Source of the DNA: a virus
DNA length: 5,590 nt
Strand: one strand, 5' to 3'
IMG/VR virus record: IMGVR_UViG_3300045988_012007
Location: 1-5,590 of that record
Every line of letters begins with the position of its first letter. Position 1 is the first letter of the stretch. The notes below the pieces were generated by a model, which was given only the letters and a program-made list of their open reading frames with translations, was not told the DNA's origin and ran no database searches. Positions 1-5,590 of the stretch are shown here, in pieces. The position numbers and the translations under genes were made by a program.

Positions 1-99
1 AAGTTCGTGCAATTTCGGTCTTGCCCTCGTTCATCCACTCTTGACTGAGTGTTGGCGGCATGTCGTAGTTGTCTGCATAGTGCCAGAAGTCTAGCGTGC
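1..99. repeat. Terminal overlap of a circular contig (left copy)
   Basis: These 99 nt are identical to 5492-5590 when compared base by base. Confidence 0.95.
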
Positions 100-1561
100 C
101 TTCTGCATTGCTCCGCATTTTACCGCTCACACGGTTTGGCTTCATGCGGTAGTCGGCCCATGCTTCCTGGTAACCGAATGTCTCTTCGTCCACTTCAGTG
201 CCCGTTACCATGATTTCCTTTTTCTTGATAGGCTGTTCGCCCAGATTTGCGAACTGCGGGAAATAGTAGTCCAGTCTGTCGTTACGGCTCCAAAAGCGCT
301 CCAAACCCTGCTGATAGCTGTGATTATGGCGAACACACATAACACCGATAATGAATCCGTGTTCTTCAAAGCTCTTGGTGAAAGAGCTTTCGTTGATAGG
401 TGTGACGGACATTGCGCCAGTTTCACCGATAGGTGTATCATTTTGGTTCTGCTGTCCTGAGGTCTGAACGATTTGGTTAATGTTGACGTGGTATCGTCCG
501 CCGCCCAGGTATTCCGGCACCTGTACTGTTTTGTCGCTGATGCTTACGCCAAACAGTGCCCTCACCTGTTCACGGTATCGACTGCCGCCACGTGCCAGCG
601 CTTCGTAATAGTGCTGTACTGCAAAGGCCTGTCTCAGCTGGTTGATTGTTGCGGCTTCGATGTTGCTCAGGTCTGTTGCAATGTATCTTGCGACAGAATC
701 TCCGCCTGTTTGTCCTGTTGAGCCCATTGCTACGATTGTTTCATCTGCGCTGTTCTGTTCCAGATTTGCTGCGGCTCCACTCATCCAGATTGTCGTTGGA
801 TTCGTTTGCCCGTTGATTCCGTTGTCATCGAACATTTTCACAGGTGCGTTTCCCGTTAGAGCGATTGTTACTTCCGGCCCACGCTGAGGATACGGCAGAC
901 AACTTGAAAAGTAGTCGTGAAAACGGCTAACTGGCAGACAGCGTCCGCCTCTGTATGCTTCTTTCAGAATTTCTTCAATGTTATTTTCATCGTTTGCGTC
1001 TGAGTATATTACGTTTTCATCGTTTGTGATGAGTGTTGCCGGGTTTCCTACGTTTTGGTCTCTGAAAAATTCGTTCCAGATTTTCACGTATGCTCTGAAT
1101 GGAAGCGCATTTACTTCCATTTCGGTTGCCGCACCTTTTTTGATTGCTTTTGTAGGTATCCCCATGTAATCACAGATACTTGCTTCGTATGGTCTGTCTG
1201 CTCTTTCTCCTGCAGGAATTATAAGCTTTGGCACTGTGTATGTTCCTTTCGGCATCCACGGTGCATCGTCTGCTTCACCCATGAATCGCTTGAAGTTGTC
1301 CCATAGGATTCGGTTCGGACAGAAGAAGTAATAGAAATCGATGAATGCATCATCGAAAACAGGATACTTTGGAGTGGTCATTCGGATGATTGCCGCCGTA
1401 TCCACGCTGAATGTATCGCCGGGCAATACTTCGTCTACATAGAAAGGAATCAGTTTACCTGCATCGAAAGTCGTGAGAATGTTCTGGTCTCGATTGAATC
1501 GTGTTCGGCTGACGTGTGTTTCCGGCACTTGGTTGAAGTGTCTCTCATTATTCCGGTTCAT
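1..1561 (-). CDS. VP1: Major capsid protein VP1 (phiX174 F-like capsid family). These are the first 520 codons; the ORF runs off the left edge and is completed by 5388..5491 on the circle, giving 554 aa in total.
   Basis: Hand translation from ATG at 1561 is open all the way to position 1, with no stop. It starts MNRNNERHFNQVPETHVSRTRFNRDQNILTTFDAGKLIPFYVDEVLPGDTF. It contains LPFRAYVKIWNEFFRDQN, INQLRQAFAVQHYYEALARGGSRYREQVRALFGV, FEEHGFIIGVMCVRH, FGYQEAWADYRMKPNRVSG and LDFWHYAD, all typical microvirus VP1/F blocks. SD AGGAGG lies 7 nt upstream of the ATG. Position 1 is codon position 1, and the frame continues exactly into 5491. Confidence 0.95.
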   Translation of the reverse strand, partial: MNRNNERHFNQVPETHVSRTRFNRDQNILTTFDAGKLIPFYVDEVLPGDTFSVDTAAIIRMTTPKYPVFDDAFIDFYYFFCPNRILWDNFKRFMGEADDAPWMPKGTYTVPKLIIPAGERADRPYEASICDYMGIPTKAIKKGAATEMEVNALPFRAYVKIWNEFFRDQNVGNPATLITNDENVIYSDANDENNIEEILKEAYRGGRCLPVSRFHDYFSSCLPYPQRGPEVTIALTGNAPVKMFDDNGINGQTNPTTIWMSGAAANLEQNSADETIVAMGSTGQTGGDSVARYIATDLSNIEAATINQLRQAFAVQHYYEALARGGSRYREQVRALFGVSISDKTVQVPEYLGGGRYHVNINQIVQTSGQQNQNDTPIGETGAMSVTPINESSFTKSFEEHGFIIGVMCVRHNHSYQQGLERFWSRNDRLDYYFPQFANLGEQPIKKKEIMVTGTEVDEETFGYQEAWADYRMKPNRVSGKMRSNAEGTLDFWHYADNYDMPPTLSQEWMNEGKTEIART

Positions 1562-1943
1562 TGCTTTCCTCCTGCTTCTTTTTCTCGGTTGCGGCCTTTT
1601 CCTGCATCCTCTGTAGTTCCATTGCATTGGCTTGTGCCGTTGCCATCATGGCGTGATACTCGTGAATGTTGGTCGGCCATTCGGTGATATCCACTGTTTC
1701 GTCCGTTTTTGCGCTGTCTGCCAGGCTTTTTGCGAACTGCGGGTCGAAACTCGCTTTGCGGACGATGTTTTTGATATCGCATTCGTCTGCGTAGCTTTCG
1801 ATTTCAGCTTGGATGTCGATTGGCTCAGTCTCAATCAGTTCTCTGTTGCCTTTTTCGTCTTTGCCCCAGACGTACTGCTTACGTAGTTTTTCGCCTGAGT
1901 TTGAAAAGAAGGGCTCTCGCCCTTCCTCATATCGTTTATTCAT
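1548..1943 (-). CDS. VP3: Internal scaffolding protein, VP3-like (131 aa)
   Basis: This is the internal ATG (1943) of the 204-aa track ORF, preceded by GGGAGGG 8 nt upstream. The annotated ATG at 2162 has no SD. The segment EIESYADECDIKNIVRKASFDPQ resembles the conserved ECDINNI-type block of gokushovirus VP3. The gene sits immediately upstream of VP1, and its stop (1548-1550) overlaps the VP1 start region. Confidence 0.75.
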   Translation of the reverse strand: MNKRYEEGREPFFSNSGEKLRKQYVWGKDEKGNRELIETEPIDIQAEIESYADECDIKNIVRKASFDPQFAKSLADSAKTDETVDITEWPTNIHEYHAMMATAQANAMELQRMQEKAATEKKKQEESNEPE

Positions 1944-2178
1944 GCGGTTTGCCCTCCCATACCTTTTCCGGCTCGATGCTCTGGAAGCTTCCGTTTTCAT
2001 CGTCGAAGTTTGCGATGTGGTAGCCCTTGTAGTCCTCAGGTGACTGGCCCAGGAACGTTTTCTCGTCCTTTGCCATGATATTGCACATCCGTGCAAAGGT
2101 TTCGTTGCTCTTGCTTTCTCCGATGTAGCAGTAGCACTTTGCCACGCTGTCGTAGATGCCATAGTATCCGTGAATCAT
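1936..2178 (-). CDS. Small conserved gokushovirus non-structural protein, VP5-like (80 aa)
   Basis: AAGGAG lies 6 nt upstream of ATG 2178. The pattern IYDSVAKCY...ETFARM...SPEDYKGYHIANFDDENGSF matches my recollection of the conserved small protein encoded just upstream of VP3 in gokushoviruses. It overlaps the VP3 start by 8 nt. Confidence 0.75.
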   Translation of the reverse strand: MIHGYYGIYDSVAKCYCYIGESKSNETFARMCNIMAKDEKTFLGQSPEDYKGYHIANFDDENGSFQSIEPEKVWEGKPHE

Positions 2179-2189
2179 GTTTTTCTCCT

Positions 2190-2309
2190 TTACAGTCTGA
2201 TGCCGCCCCGCATGGGTTTCTGGCTGAGGTTGATGCTTTTCGTTTTGCGCGCCGTTACGTTGAACATTCTCTTGTCAGTGTGTACCGGCATCCGCTGTCT
2301 GTGCTTCAT
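2190..2309 (-). CDS. 39-aa highly basic DNA-binding/packaging protein (gokushovirus ORF8 / phiX174 J analogue); not in the ORF track
   Basis: Hand translation gives MKHRQRMPVHTDKRMFNVTARKTKSINLSQKPMRGGIRL, followed by TAA. It has 11 Lys/Arg plus 2 His against 1 acidic residue. The C-terminal PMRGGIRL resembles the conserved end of small basic microvirus proteins. GGGAG lies 7 nt upstream of ATG 2309. Its stop codon is followed immediately by the SD of the next gene. Confidence 0.7.
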   Translation of the reverse strand: MKHRQRMPVHTDKRMFNVTARKTKSINLSQKPMRGGIRL

Positions 2310-2520
2310 ATGTGTACTCCCTTCTGAGTAGTTCCAGTTCGATGTCATTGGCCCATTTCTTCATAATCCATATTCGGTCAATCATATTTTTTGCGTCTTC
2401 TGAGTTGGATACTTTTTTTACCATTTTGTATCCAGCTTCTATCTGCTTGTATAGCCTTTCGGCCTCTAGTCTGAGGTTTTCTTCGGTCTGGTCTCGTACA
2501 TTCCATGTTTTGTGCATCAT
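2275..2520 (-). CDS. Hypothetical protein, 81 aa, predicted helical and charged; no family recognised
   Basis: The ORF starts with ATGATG, and AAGGAG lies 6 nt upstream. It is packed tightly between neighbouring genes, and its 3' end overlaps the 39-aa basic ORF by 35 nt. I see no recognisable motif. Confidence 0.65.
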   Translation of the reverse strand: MMHKTWNVRDQTEENLRLEAERLYKQIEAGYKMVKKVSNSEDAKNMIDRIWIMKKWANDIELELLRREYTYEAQTADAGTH

Positions 2521-2523
2521 GTT

Positions 2524-2628
2524 TTACTCCTTTTCCTTCAGGACGTGATAGATTTCGTCAAGCTTTTCCAGTACGGTCTTGATGAGCTGAATTGCTTCTC
2601 GCAGGTCCTTGACTTTGATTAATGCCAT
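2524..2628 (-). CDS. Hypothetical 34-aa ORF (amphipathic-helix-like); not in the ORF track
   Basis: Hand translation gives MALIKVKDLREAIQLIKTVLEKLDEIYHVLKEKE, followed by TAA. The SD-like GGGGG sits 8 nt upstream, inside the end of the peptidase gene. The ATG is 3 nt after the peptidase TGA and in the same frame. It fills an otherwise non-coding 108-nt gap in a very compact genome. Confidence 0.35.
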   Translation of the reverse strand: MALIKVKDLREAIQLIKTVLEKLDEIYHVLKEKE

Positions 2629-2631
2629 AGG

Positions 2632-3015
2632 TCACACCCCCTTTCTGTATCTTTTTTCACGTACATCAATGTGTGTGAAGTTTGTGTATCTGATTATTCC
2701 GCCTTGTTCTATGATGCTATCTGCGTACTTTGCGACTTCTTGACTGCTGTGTCCTTTTACTACGATATCGGCCGCCATTCCTTTGCAGTGGTAGCTGTTT
2801 GATGCTCCTTTTACTTTGCTGTTCCAACTCGGTGTACGGTATCCGCTGTTGATGATGACCGGTGCGTTGAAGTGGTTTCGGATTTCTTCTAAGACTGCGA
2901 GTAGCTCAGGTGCCCATAAGAATTCTTTTGTTTTGTCTTTGCATCTAAACTCTTCTGCTTTGAAGTGTTGCGTTAATCGGTCGTTGTTTGTTTGGTTTAA
3001 GATTTTTGTACTCAT
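2632..3015 (-). CDS. Zinc peptidase of the M15 family (Peptidase_M15_3-like), putative endolysin, 127 aa
   Basis: The motifs are FKAEEFRC...APVIINSGYRTPSWNSKVKGASNSYHCKGMAADI...FTHIDV. This is the SGYR, SxH-x6-D and HxD zinc-ligand layout typical of small phage M15 peptidases. I chose ATG 3015 because GAGGT lies 7 nt upstream and a promoter lies just beyond. The longer track ORF (to 3189) starts at a TTG and reads through the promoter and the repeats. Confidence 0.85.
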   Translation of the reverse strand: MSTKILNQTNNDRLTQHFKAEEFRCKDKTKEFLWAPELLAVLEEIRNHFNAPVIINSGYRTPSWNSKVKGASNSYHCKGMAADIVVKGHSSQEVAKYADSIIEQGGIIRYTNFTHIDVREKRYRKGV

Positions 3016-3034
3016 TTTTATTACCTCTAGTTTT

Positions 3035-3063
3035 TTTATATCATGGCCGGCTTGATAAGTCAA
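3035..3063 (-). promoter_or_regulatory. sigma70-type promoter driving the peptidase-to-VP1 gene string
   Basis: On the minus strand the promoter is TTGACT (3063-3058), a 17-nt spacer, then TATAAA (3040-3035). The -10 element ends 19 nt before ATG 3015. Directly upstream (3064-3090) is an A/T-tract stretch, AAAAGTTTTTTTTCAAAAAA, that could act as an UP element. Confidence 0.6.
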
Positions 3064-3116
3064 GGGTTTTTTGAAAAAAAACTTTTGACGTTCAAGTCGG
3101 ATGCCCGCCGCAGGCG

Positions 3117-3283
3117 TTTTCAACATTTTCCACATAGTTTTCAACATTTCCACATTGTTAAACTTTAGCACAATAGAGTGTTTCAACAATTCAACAAGTT
3201 TTCAACAAATCTTTCAACATTCTTTTTTGCGTTTTTTCTTCGTACTAACGTGAATAAAAAGCACTTTTCAACATTTCCACATA
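3117..3283. repeat. Iteron array: 3 copies of an 18-19 nt unit plus 4 short copies, all in the same orientation
   Basis: The unit TTTTCAACATTT(T)CCACAT occurs at 3117-3135, 3138-3155 and 3265-3282. The core TTCAACA starts at 3119, 3140, 3182, 3190, 3201, 3213 and 3267. Confidence 0.85.
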
Positions 3284-3318
3284 CTCTACTACTACGACTA
3301 CAACAAGTTATATTATAA

Positions 3319-3368
3319 TACGTGCGCACGCGTGCGCGTGTAGTTTTTCGCGTGCGCGTGTGTGCGCG
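3319..3368. repeat. Two alternating pyrimidine-purine GC-rich blocks containing a 13-nt direct repeat and a 14-nt palindrome
   Basis: 3319-3342 (24 nt) and 3349-3368 (20 nt) are unbroken Py-Pu alternations made of CG/TG/CA steps. CGCGTGCGCGTGT occurs at 3329-3341 and again at 3349-3361. GCGCACGCGTGCGC (3324-3337) is a perfect palindrome. The flanking sequence is almost pure A/T. Confidence 0.85.
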
Positions 3369-3400
3369 ATTAGAATAATCAGAATAATAATTAGAATAAT
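3369..3400. repeat. AGAATAAT short direct repeats, three copies
   Basis: ATTAGAATAAT occurs at 3369-3379 and 3390-3400, 21 nt apart. A third AGAATAAT sits at 3381-3388. Confidence 0.7.
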
Positions 3401-3402
3401 AA

Positions 3403-3434
3403 AGCCCAGTACCTTACTTGATAGGTACTGGGCT
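3403..3434 (-). terminator. Rho-independent-type terminator hairpin downstream of VP4 (Rep)
   Basis: There is a perfect 12-bp stem, AGCCCAGTACCT (3403-3414) with AGGTACTGGGCT (3423-3434), and an 8-nt loop. The stem begins 12 nt after the Rep TAG stop. On the minus strand it is followed by TTTATTATTCTAATT. Confidence 0.6.
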
Positions 3435-3446
3435 AGGTGACACCAT

Positions 3447-4466
3447 CTATAAAATACCACGCTTTTTCGTTTGTTTTTTGGTGACACGTTCTTTTGTCTC
3501 TAGGACTGTTTTATAGTCCTGCTCCTCTAGCTGTAGACGTTTTTGTTCTATGGCGTTTTTCTGTCGGTTTTGTTTAATTCTCCACAGTCTTTGTGGGTTT
3601 TCTGATTCCATCTGCTTTTCATAGTATCTTGGAATTTTCGCTTGTTTTCCGTTGGTGCATTGAATGTAACCTTTCTGCCAGATTTCTGCCTTGTGCTCTT
3701 GATAGTAATGGTCTCCAAGACCCGGTTTTAGGCTCATGCAAGCAAAAGGTTTCGTTTGTCCCAATTCGTAGTATGCATTGGCTTTCTTTCCTTCTATCTC
3801 GTACATTTTTTTTGTAACATACCCTGCAACATATCTATAGGTTTCTGGAACTGCTTGCGCAATCTGTATTTGACCCATGCCCCATAGGTTTTCTAACCAT
3901 TTGCTGGTATAGTATCCATTGTGGTGAATCTTGTATAGGTTCTTCAGGTCTGTCGGTTCCCACCCGTATAGTATCATGTGATAGTGTGGTCTTGCTGTTT
4001 GTTCTCCGTATTCACCCGCTACAAAATAGCGTAATTTGCCTCTGTAAGCCTTCCTGAGGCGTTTTAAGAATTTTTGAATATCTTCATACAGTAGAATCTG
4101 TACGCTGTCTGGACGCTTCTCTCCCGGCTTCCACGTGTATTGTACCTTTCGCATGATTTCGCCTGTTTTTACTATCATGCCCGGTACATGGTTGTCATCA
4201 TAAGTTAGCGTGATAAACCATACCTGTTCTTTTGGGTAATCTCTTGCTTCTAACTCTATGCGCGTCGTCCAGTCTTCTCGTTGTCTGATTCTGCACCCGA
4301 TGCATTGTCCGCACGGTATCAACATAACTTTTGGATTATACATCAAATCTTCATATTTTAGCTGTTTCCCGCTTAACTGAGAAAAGCGGGCGAGTGTATA
4401 TACCCGCCCGCTCACTTCTTTGTTATCCGGGTTGTACAGCCTGATTAGCGGCTTGTAACAACTCAT
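3447..4466 (-). CDS. VP4: Replication initiation protein VP4 (HUH rolling-circle endonuclease, phiX174 A-like), 339 aa
   Basis: The rolling-circle replication motifs are present in order: FITLTYD (motif 1), [10 protein letters not shown] (HUH, motif 2) and [11 protein letters not shown] (two-tyrosine motif 3, compare phiX174 YVAKYVNKK). The gokushovirus-type CGQCIGCR is also present. GGTGA lies 9 nt upstream of the ATG, and the start overlaps the VP2 stop as ATGA. Confidence 0.95.
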
Positions 4467-5347
4467 TTCAGATAATCACCCGGCTTTCTTTTTTGTCCAT
4501 AGTCTCCTGTTTTATTCTGCATTGGGTCGTCTGTTCTGTGTCCTGGTTTTCCACTGCCGTTTGCTTTTTTCCCCATTTTATTTGTGATGTCTTCAATTGT
4601 CTCGTTTGTTTCGTTGTCGATATTTGTTAGTGCTTTCATTAAGCCGTATGGAGAGAGATGTGTTTCGCTTAGCATTTGATTCCAGCTTTGCGATGCGTTG
4701 TACCAGTCTGATTTACTCCAGCTTGAGCTGCTGTATGAGTTCGGAACAAATCCGCTGCTTCTGCTGATTCCTAGTGCGCTGCTGCTTGCCAGTCCCATGC
4801 TTGCTCCGCTGATTGTTCCCGCCGAACCTCCTGGTGTGCTTGCTCCGCCGTTTGCAGCTGCTAGGATTGGATTTATACCTGCTTTTTTCATGTCCTCAAC
4901 CGCTCTTTGGTATGCTGTGTTGCTCATGCGTTCTTGGAACTGTCTGTTTGCTAGCGCTTCTGCGCTGTTGTAATTCATCGCGGCTGTGTTTTCGATGTGG
5001 TTGTATACGCCTTGCATGATGGCTTGCATTGTGTTGTATCCCATTTGCTGTAGCATACTTTTTCTGTTGTATTTTTGCTGTGCTATGCCTTCTGCGCTTT
5101 GATATCCGTATGCTTGCTGTAGATATTTTGCGATTTGCTCATCATTTGTTCCGGCTTGGCTTCCGCTTTCGGATGCTCCGCCGCCTTGGCTTACACTTCC
5201 TCCGCTACTTTGGCTTGTTCCTTCATTTCCCCATCCGCCAAAACTGCCTGTAACGTTTTTTACTGCGTTTGTTATGCTTCCTATGCTTGTTGCTACATTT
5301 CCAAGCATGCTTGTTCCTTTTATAATTGCTCCCCATGGAATTGCCAT
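4463..5347 (-). CDS. VP2: DNA pilot / minor capsid protein VP2 (H-like), 294 aa
   Basis: The call rests on its position between VP1 and VP4 and on its size. It has a Gly/Ser-rich low-complexity N-terminal third, then a helical Q/A/N/M-rich centre, as in gokushovirus VP2. There is no catalytic motif to check. An alternative start is Met14, which has AAGGA 6 nt upstream. Confidence 0.75.
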
Positions 5348-5356
5348 TTGAAAATA

Positions 5357-5375
5357 GCCGGGTTTTTGTCCCGGC
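5357..5375 (-). terminator. GC hairpin between the VP1 stop and the VP2 start (possible attenuator, or a hairpin splitting the ribosome-binding site)
   Basis: The minus strand reads GCCGGG-ACAAAAA-CCCGGC followed by TATTTTCAA-ATG. The only SD (AAGGAGG, complement of 5378-5384) lies upstream of the hairpin. Confidence 0.4.
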
Positions 5376-5387
5376 TTCCTCCTTTCT

Positions 5388-5590
5388 TTACAGCTTTTCC
5401 AGACCCGGCACGCTGTACAGCGGCATGCAACGAGTGGTCTTGTTCATCACCCTGATTGCCCCAAAGAACTGCGGTTCATTCTGAACAATCAAAGTTCGTG
5501 CAATTTCGGTCTTGCCCTCGTTCATCCACTCTTGACTGAGTGTTGGCGGCATGTCGTAGTTGTCTGCATAGTGCCAGAAGTCTAGCGTGC
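5388..5590 (-). CDS. VP1: 3' end of the VP1 major capsid gene (5492-5590 duplicates 1-99)
   Basis: The same frame as 1..1561 carried across the junction reads ...[39 protein letters not shown], followed by TAA at 5388-5390. The MPLYSVPGL ending is typical of microvirus VP1. Confidence 0.9.
5492..5590. repeat. Terminal overlap of a circular contig (right copy)
   Basis: These 99 nt are identical to 1-99. Joining the two copies restores the VP1 reading frame exactly. Confidence 0.95.

Follow-up and report, generated by a model that had tools for sequence, protein, structure and literature searches.

The viral record IMGVR_UViG_3300045988_012007 of IMG/VR, analyzed here over positions 1 to 5,590 (5,590 nt, referred to as the window), raises the question of why a small single-stranded DNA (ssDNA) phage carries, between two of its genes, a dense array of repeats resembling bacterial DnaA boxes. 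The array lies in a 430-nt intergenic region that extends from the end of the gene for the replication protein (Rep) to the start of a peptidase gene. The original prediction had described it, at positions 3117 to 3283, as seven same-orientation TTCAACA cores that might recruit or titrate host DnaA. Bases 1 to 100 of the window recur at positions 5491 to 5590, and because of this 100-nt terminal direct repeat, the window is read as a circular gokushovirus genome of about 5,490 nt written with an overlap. The explanation favored here, to which we assign a probability of about 0.5, is that positions 3117 to 3320 are a portable oriC-like module for DnaA assembly and DNA unwinding, a copy or a mimic, which may act on the double-stranded replicative form (RF). 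The sequences show the grammar of the module with its statistics and its conservation, and they show that it is identical in part with real origins and not tied to one Rep lineage, one strand, or one place in the genome; we infer DnaA binding, unwinding, and the use of the opened DNA.

The TTCAACA heptamer occurs seven times in the window, always on the plus strand (3119, 3140, 3182, 3190, 3201, 3213, and 3267), exactly where it had been placed; dinucleotide shuffles give an expectation of 1.13, and 0 of 200 contained seven or more. The 18/19-nt unit TTTTCAACATTT(T)CCACAT was likewise found three times (3117, 3138, and 3265), and ten box-like 9-mers, as originally proposed, are packed head to tail in 3117 to 3281, with consecutive box starts spaced by 9, 12, 8, 34, 8, 11, 12, 54, and 8 nt. 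They form three groups on the plus strand. The distal group (3117 to 3154), recognized from counts, shuffles, and relatives, consists of TTTTCAACA (3117), TTTTCCACA (3126), TTTTCAACA (3138), and ATTTCCACA (3146), head to tail. The quartet (3180 to 3219), recognized from its conservation, reads GTTTCAACA, AATTCAACA, TTTTCAACA, and CTTTCAACA from starts at 3180, 3188, 3199, and 3211, and its last core (3213) starts 54 nt before the first core (3267) of the proximal group. The latter is a tandem pair (3265 to 3281), TTTTCAACA followed by (A)TTTCCACA, which is supported by conservation and by identity with bacterial origins.

How many of these sites are called DnaA boxes depends on the consensus. 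The strict Escherichia coli form TTWTNCACA, to which the sites had first been compared, has a single match in the window, TTTTCCACA at 3126, which fits at 9 of 9 positions, and ATTTCCACA, at 3146 and 3273, has one mismatch; both scores agree with the original ones, but one match against 0.67 expected is no enrichment. Enrichment is visible only when up to two mismatches are allowed or when the Mollicutes-type consensus is used. Seven 9-mers on the plus strand of 3117 to 3283 have at most two mismatches to TTATCCACA, and 5,000 dinucleotide shuffles of the same 167 nt gave a mean of 1.28 and a maximum of 6, so that the array exceeds the shuffled AT-rich controls against which it was proposed to be judged. 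The Mollicutes DnaA-box consensus is TT(A/T)TC(C/A)ACA (PMC3322544, Table 2). Exact matches to this form, TTWTCMACA, occur five times, all on the plus strand in 3117 to 3273 (0.27 expected; 0 of 200 shuffles), and with up to one mismatch there are nine (five exact and four with one mismatch), on one strand and within 165 nt. The phage units TTTTCAACA and TTTTCCACA fit it at all nine positions, and TTTTTAACA, a variant found in relatives, fits the Acholeplasma laidlawii form; the Acholeplasma consensus is TT(T/A)T(C/T)(C/A)ACA (PMC3322544). A DnaA-box cluster has been defined as at least three boxes with a mean spacing below 100 bp (criterion quoted in PMC7561715), and the window has TTTTCCACA with no mismatch to TTWTNCACA and the TTTTCAACA and ATTTCCACA sites with one each, all within 165 nt. 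The helical phasing first claimed for the array was drawn from four selected gaps, and the real spacings range from 8 to 54 nt; what stands is that the box positions are nearly invariant in 127 related modules, as described below.

The array is continued at 3282 to 3320 by a spacer, a run of triplets, and an AT-only patch; the range first marked had ended 3 nt short of the key element. The 4-nt spacer TACT (3282 to 3285, plus strand) is followed by triplets resembling DnaA-trios (3286 to 3306), which read CTA CTA CTA CGA CTA CAA CAA on the plus strand. On the minus (coding) strand, which DnaA would bind, 5'-TAG-3' corresponds to 3'-GAT-5', and the order is AT patch, TTG TTG TAG TCG TAG TAG TAG, AGTA, and TGTGGAAAT. 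The sequence CTACTACTA is unique in the genome and appears in 0.8% of shuffles, and the composite of a box, at most 16 nt, and CTACTACTA appears in 0.05% of genome shuffles. The AT-only patch GTTATATTATAATA (3307 to 3320) is a candidate duplex-unwinding element on the basis of nearest-neighbor energy and conservation: 3306 to 3320 is the least stable 15-bp duplex of the genome, ranking first of 5,476, and CAACAAGTTATAT in this region is at least 90% conserved.

This arrangement conforms to the rules used to search for the basal unwinding system (BUS) of bacterial origins (Pelliciari et al. 2021, PMC8287927). These rules call for a box with at most two mismatches to TTATCCACA, optionally a tandem box with at most four mismatches 0 to 3 bp away, a spacer of 0 to 16 bp (typically about 4 bp and GC-rich), at least three consecutive triplets with a central A, and an AT-rich element beyond; on the strand that has the box as TGTGGATAA, the triplet consensus is 3'-GAT-5'. 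In the window, ATTTCCACA at 3273 has two mismatches (one in the TTTTCCACA of relatives), and the tandem box TTTTCAACA at 3265 has two mismatches and shares 1 nt with the box that follows, an overlap also seen in bacteria (TTATCCACATATCCACA and TTATCAACTTATCCACA). The spacer measures 4 nt, TAG TAG TAG stands beside TGTGGAAAT on the coding strand with a fourth TAG after one TCG, and 3306 to 3320 supplies the AT element, though a short one (14 bp). A chromosomal oriC would in addition lie beside dnaA or dnaN. The module instead has a microvirus Rep gene on one side and a peptidase gene on the other, so it is not a chromosome origin but only built like one. The box-to-triplet orientation agrees with that of Clostridioides difficile oriC2, which has 5'-CACCTACTACTATTACTACTATGA-3' ahead of its unwinding element (PMC7561715), and with that of the other bacterial-type origins checked. 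In Bacillus subtilis incC, a second box subregion at least 44 bp upstream is required in helical phase (PMC6669920), and by analogy, the phage quartet and proximal pair resemble these two box subregions. A scan of the viral collection for TTATCCACA with CTACTACTA returned no microvirus and only larger contigs resembling bacterial origins, which were used as orientation controls; some of these have TTATCCACATTATCCACAGCCCCTACTACTAC followed by AT-rich DNA, and similar cases have boxes 8 to 9 nt apart, a spacing also present in other real box-trio origins. Across 42 bacterial-type box-trio regions that were selected independently, the variant with A at position 6 of the box, which prevails in the phage, shows a 10-fold enrichment, and G at this position shows none.

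The proximal pair contains an 18-mer, TTTTCAACATTTCCACAT, whose exact matches were sought in one genome per bacterial species, giving at least 120 loci. Among the 120 matches listed, dnaA lies within the 8-kb locus in 25, from at least eight lineages, and most are lone sites inside genes with no second box near. The clearest origin is in a bacterial contig (L037) with the neighborhood rnpA-dnaA-dnaN-recF-gyrB, where the dnaA-dnaN spacer of 245 nt holds the 18-mer and, after it, TGC CTA CGA CGA CGA TGA TGA, an AT tract, and the start of dnaN; all three TTCAACA of this 8-kb locus fall within the spacer. In three other loci (L046, L051, and L114), the 18-mer is set among canonical TTATCCACA boxes. 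Capture of the module from the L037 origin was considered and not adopted: the alignment is significant only at the core of box pair and trios (score of 42 versus 19.7 ± 2.6), which fits a shared grammar and does not prove common descent. Two further families of matches are recorded. In Chitinophagaceae, the 18-mer is part of a conserved element of about 90 nt (…TTTTTTTTCAACATTTCCACATGTGGGAAAAATAAGATAAC…) located about 500 nt upstream of dnaA (loci L025, L026, L039, L047 to L049, L054, L071, L072, L080, L091, L098, L103, L105, L123, L128, and L134), which is probably part of their oriC. Two Ruminococcaceae metagenome-assembled genomes (L066, 1421 to 1460; L081, 4718 to 4760) carry TTTTCAACATTTCCACATAGTTTTCAACATTT, identical to the left-hand repeat junction of the phage, just upstream of a GTPase-like gene whose product starts MTKIDIISGFLGAGKTT. 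These two sites have no dnaA near them and are not at an origin; they may be a DnaA-regulated promoter or a site for another factor.

The module is conserved far beyond the window. The intergenic DNA matches that of 47 gut gokushoviruses in GenBank, in several of which only the intergenic region matches. Among 65 distinct close relatives, picked by Rep similarity alone (83 to 95%), 64 have five to nine TTCAACA (up to 10 if inverted) in the 520 nt after the Rep gene, so that the repeated unit, whose conservation had been left to be checked, is kept in relatives. More than 100 gut microviruses carry the module, and their 127 distinct modules, from genomes with Rep identities of 35 to 95%, have a nearly invariant geometry, with boxes at -26, -34, -88, -100, -111, -119, and -153 to -192 from CAACAAG. 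The proximal pair is found at -34/-26 in 102 to 110 of the 127 modules and the quartet 7-mers at -119/-111/-100/-88 in 95 to 105, and the distal group of relatives, at -182/-173/-161/-153, comes in two register variants. In an alignment of 61 sequences, conservation is strongest in the box groups, including the quartet, and in 3263 to 3312. The consensus of the proximal pair in relatives is TTTTCAAC-TTTTCCACA, and TTCAACA, TTCCACA, and TTTAACA replace one another at the same positions, as predicted for one type of site with a Mollicutes-type consensus. The spacer is fixed in length and free in sequence (GCCC, GTGC, TACC, and TTGC in relatives): of 77 contexts, 61 have 19 nt between the end of the box and CAACAAG, and the others are regular-expression artifacts of equal length. 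Triplets 1 to 3 and 5 are invariant across modules, and triplet 4 is variable. A second clade of 20 genomes, whose Rep and capsid proteins are about 45% identical to those of the window, shares the module; its spacer (GCCC or GTGC) is rich in G+C, like that of the bacterial BUS, and module DNA is 68 to 75% identical across clades whose Rep proteins are 35 to 46% identical. The sole close Rep relative without the module, L195, is an 8.8-kb contig with two opposite-strand open reading frames (ORFs) in its place (3518 to 5200), and it may be a chimera or a larger element. No similar DNA was found among the PLSDB plasmids.

The location and orientation of the module vary in the same genomes. The whole stretch from boxes to AT patch (about 215 bp) is inverted relative to the genes in four close relatives (L163, L179, L194, and L208), in MG945447 (L430; Rep 83% identical), and in KT264800 (L431; Rep 46%), and it lies between VP2 and VP4 in MT121961 (L432; Rep 35%). 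By this comparison, the module behaves as a movable cassette. Any given reading frame is open in at most 14 of 126 modules and Rfam has no match in the array region, which excludes a protein-coding or RNA role. In addition, the single strand of the module folds no better than shuffles (z = -0.32). Because the module is inverted or relocated, has no special fold as a single strand, and has no conserved ORF, an action at the level of the duplex is favored.

The oriC-like reading is supported by the matches to box consensuses, the 18-mer in real origins, the BUS grammar, the two box subregions, the conservation, the independence from Rep, and the duplex-level action. Host DnaA would bind the ten same-orientation Firmicute/Mollicute-type TT(A/T)TC(C/A)ACA boxes on the RF, and the proximal pair at 3265 to 3281 would position a filament of ATP-DnaA. 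This filament would extend over the 4-nt spacer of fixed length to the 3'-GAT-5' triplets on the coding strand (3286 to 3300) and separate the strands of the neighboring 14-bp AT patch, which melts more easily than any other duplex of the genome. The opened DNA could load host helicase and primase, so that RF synthesis would be started or primed, independently of Rep or in aid of it. The suggestion that the boxes would recruit host DnaA thus gains strong comparative support, from the Mollicutes consensus, the 18-mer in a dnaA-dnaN origin, and the trios with their AT patch. Several points weigh against this reading. Microviridae replicate by Rep-driven rolling circle, with no described need for DnaA. 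The change from C to A at position 6 falls outside the relaxed E. coli consensus, and the strict consensus, as given above, is not enriched. The spacer in the window, TACT, is not GC-rich, the fourth triplet has C in place of the central A, and the AT patch is just 14 bp long and bounded by a GC block, whereas bacterial unwinding elements are usually longer. Moreover, SpV4 (M17988), a cultured gokushovirus of a mollicute, has no box cluster, and the L037 contig has a G+C content of 35%, compared with 45% in the phage, and need not be the host.

The strongest rival is DnaA capture without origin firing, in which the boxes titrate DnaA from the host origin, as datA does, or use it as a transcription factor for nearby promoters. 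It shares all of the DnaA-box evidence; moreover, the array lies 55 to 220 nt upstream of a promoter candidate at 3035 to 3063 (upstream, as originally stated, all genes being on the minus strand), and T5-like phages have a conserved array of eight DnaA boxes that is presumed not to act as an origin (bioRxiv 10.1101/866236). Such a sink or switch needs boxes only, however, and the most conserved part of the module is the pair, the fixed-length spacer, the trios, and the AT patch, which are relevant solely to strand opening, so that we consider this rival doubtful. Relatives differ in where the module lies and which way it faces with respect to promoters, and since placement varies, a fixed promoter operator is excluded; control of one particular promoter, one of the roles first suggested, is disfavored because relatives have the module inverted or in another intergenic region. 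One could also imagine sites for a different host protein (a response regulator or Spo0A, for instance) or nothing more than bent T-rich DNA. TTCAACA is one base from TTCGACA, the complement of the Spo0A box, and direct repeats 8 to 12 nt apart resemble response-regulator sites. Yet TTCGACA is absent from about 700 sites in 81 modules, which include 98 TTCCACA and 29 TTTAACA, and the trios, the fixed spacer, and the identity with a dnaA-dnaN origin would be left unexplained, which makes this explanation quite improbable.

The original prediction had also held that the repeats could equally bind Rep. In this alternative, the module would be a viral origin in which TTCAACA binds VP4 or another phage protein and the conserved CTACAACAAGTTATAT block holds the nick site, as in CRESS-DNA viruses and rolling-circle plasmids. 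The module usually adjoins the Rep gene, its inversion could be tolerated if the module itself defined the nicked strand, and AACTTG on the coding strand at 3303 to 3308 is like the phiX174 site, CAACTTG/ATA (the slash marking the nick). The same 7-mer and geometry are nevertheless found with Reps just 35 to 46% identical, without the covariation of iteron and Rep lineage that such binding implies, and Rep-specific iterons are unlikely because one module serves Reps of 35 to 95% identity; binding to Rep is now a weaker option than it had seemed. In addition, the module is not always beside the Rep stop codon, a covarying hairpin with the loop ACTTGATA is the better nick-site candidate, and the bacterial-origin identity would be a coincidence. 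No phiX-type Rep is known to use iterons. The role that fits least well, and to which we give very little weight, is a complementary-strand origin, in which DnaA or a primosome of the R6K A-site type acts on the packaged single strand to prime the second strand. The coding strand, which is presumed to be packaged, does carry the 3'-GAT-5' triplets in the common orientation of the module. The boxes, however, would have to be double-stranded, and they are all direct repeats in a strand whose fold is no better than that of shuffles; no box in the module sits in a stable hairpin stem of the single strand, as an R6K A-site would require, and, with respect to the genes, the module occurs on both strands. 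Of the roles first suggested, complementary-strand priming, taken as acting by way of a DnaA-box hairpin in single-stranded DNA, is thus disfavored.

A stronger form of the oriC-like reading, which we hold only tentatively, is that many gut gokushoviruses, as a large group, have a second origin of host type, fired by DnaA, in the form of a mobile cassette copying the unwinding core of the host oriC. DnaA firing on the RF could lead to theta-type amplification independent of Rep or to a plasmid-like persistence; alternatively, the bubble opened by DnaA could be handed to Rep or to host helicase and primase. If this were so, it would overturn a purely Rep-driven rolling-circle view of Microviridae replication, and a virus would be exchanging a chromosomal-origin module between lineages.

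Among known systems, the bacterial oriC BUS is the closest (B. subtilis incC DnaA-box#6/#7 with trios, Richardson 2016, 2019; Pelliciari 2021; C. difficile oriC2), sharing a tandem pair, a short spacer of fixed length, at least three 3'-GAT-5' triplets, an AT patch, and boxes at least 44 bp upstream. The phage module differs in that it belongs to a 5.5-kb rolling-circle ssDNA virus and is not beside dnaA, its ten boxes all point in the same direction and mostly have A in place of C at position 6, its 14-bp AT patch is bounded by a GC block, and it is mobile among virus lineages in both orientations. The Mollicutes oriC boxes (PMC3322544) are alike in the 9-of-9 fits and the A. laidlawii variant described above; the mollicute gokushovirus SpV4 is without the module. 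The injection-stop array of T5-like phages (bioRxiv 10.1101/866236) is likewise a conserved set of consensus and variant (TTATCAACA) boxes in a precise arrangement and has been called reminiscent of oriC, but it is in a double-stranded DNA phage, its boxes are in inverted repeats, trios or an unwinding patch are not described, and membrane tethering is the proposed function. The papers searched yielded no link between Microviridae or gokushoviruses and DnaA boxes, DnaA-trios, or iterons, and while the BUS element type is known, a mobile BUS-like module in ssDNA microviruses appears to be new.

Plasmid and phage origins such as P1 oriR, F, pSC101, and R6K also belong to mobile replicons and draw in host DnaA by means of boxes adjacent to AT-rich DNA, but the boxes are helpers there, and these origins depend on iterons for their own initiators (RepA, pi). 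In the phage, by contrast, the iterons are themselves DnaA-type boxes, and a theta-type initiator gene is not present. To our knowledge, the phiX origin has neither iterons nor DnaA boxes. In the gut, gokushoviruses rank with the most abundant ssDNA phages. If the module is as proposed, box type and trio core could be matched with candidate host origins to link phages to hosts, and RF amplification or persistence would have a mechanism besides Rep. The module would, moreover, clearly exemplify a virus that mimics or has captured a chromosomal-origin core, with a bearing on DnaA titration and on host cell-cycle control in infection. The more than 100 natural BUS variants, with their fixed geometry, free spacer, and variable fourth trio, would be useful for studies of DnaA-driven opening.

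The AT patch is adjoined by a GC-rich block of alternating purines and pyrimidines (3321 to 3368) with two CGTGCGCGTG-type repeats, whose composition is kept in most relatives. The repeats, CGTGCGCACGCGTGCGCGTG and CGCGTGCGCGTGTGTGCGCG, wall off the AT patch and could form Z-DNA or a cruciform. The block is absent from some second-clade genomes, and in genomes with an inverted box-trio module it stays beside the hairpin described next. The GC block and AT patch were also considered as a dif/Xer site, a reading dropped on inspection by eye, the XerD-arm half not being there. Three AT-rich 11-mers, ATTAGAATAAT, ATCAGAATAAT, and ATTAGAATAAT, follow at 3369 to 3402; they make up the second least stable duplex of the genome and are poorly conserved.

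Just past the Rep stop codon is a perfect 12-bp hairpin (3403 to 3434), recognized by stem covariation and a conserved loop. Its stems covary by compensatory pairs (e.g., AGCCCAGTACCT and GTGGGCCTAATCCT), all 41 variants retain the loop CTTGAT(A), and a match of about 90% is present in distant microviruses associated with Ciona and Apis (H64 to H67). The loop is TACTTGAT on the plus strand and ATCAAGTA on the coding strand, and at 3415 to 3422 it reads ACTTGATA, on the noncoding strand, which is the phiX174/pC194-type nick motif. The likeness to the phiX174 origin and the pC194 family (CTTG/ATA) thus lies in this loop and in the phiX-type Rep that is encoded, with the difference that the phage motif is in a hairpin rather than in the box array and on the noncoding strand. 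On the coding strand, the hairpin has the form of an intrinsic terminator. It may be the nick site of Rep, a terminator, or both, and is from its sequence a better nick-site candidate than the box-trio module.

The minus strand carries all genes of the window, including those for capsid F (to 1561), peptidase M15, the VP4 Rep, and VP2. The VP4 rolling-circle Rep gene occupies 3447 to 4466 (Pfam REP_ORF2-G2P, E value of 3.7e-17), and the peptidase M15 gene, which comes first after the intergenic region in the downstream direction, occupies 2632 to 3015 (Pfam Peptidase_M15_3, E value of 7.4e-25). The promoter candidate at 3035 to 3063 on the minus strand, of the sigma-70/SigA type and leading into the peptidase gene, was read from the sequence as TTGACT-17-TATAAA; a consensus promoter scanner made no call in 2900 to 3550, and hence none for this candidate, and relatives have TTGACA-16-TATAAT in its place. 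Within the Rep gene there is a sub-threshold Rfam match to Termite-leu (27.4 bits, with the gathering score at 51), and overlapping it, in the 5' part of this gene at 4384 to 4411, is a GC-rich 8-bp hairpin, AGCGGGCG ... CGCCCGCT.

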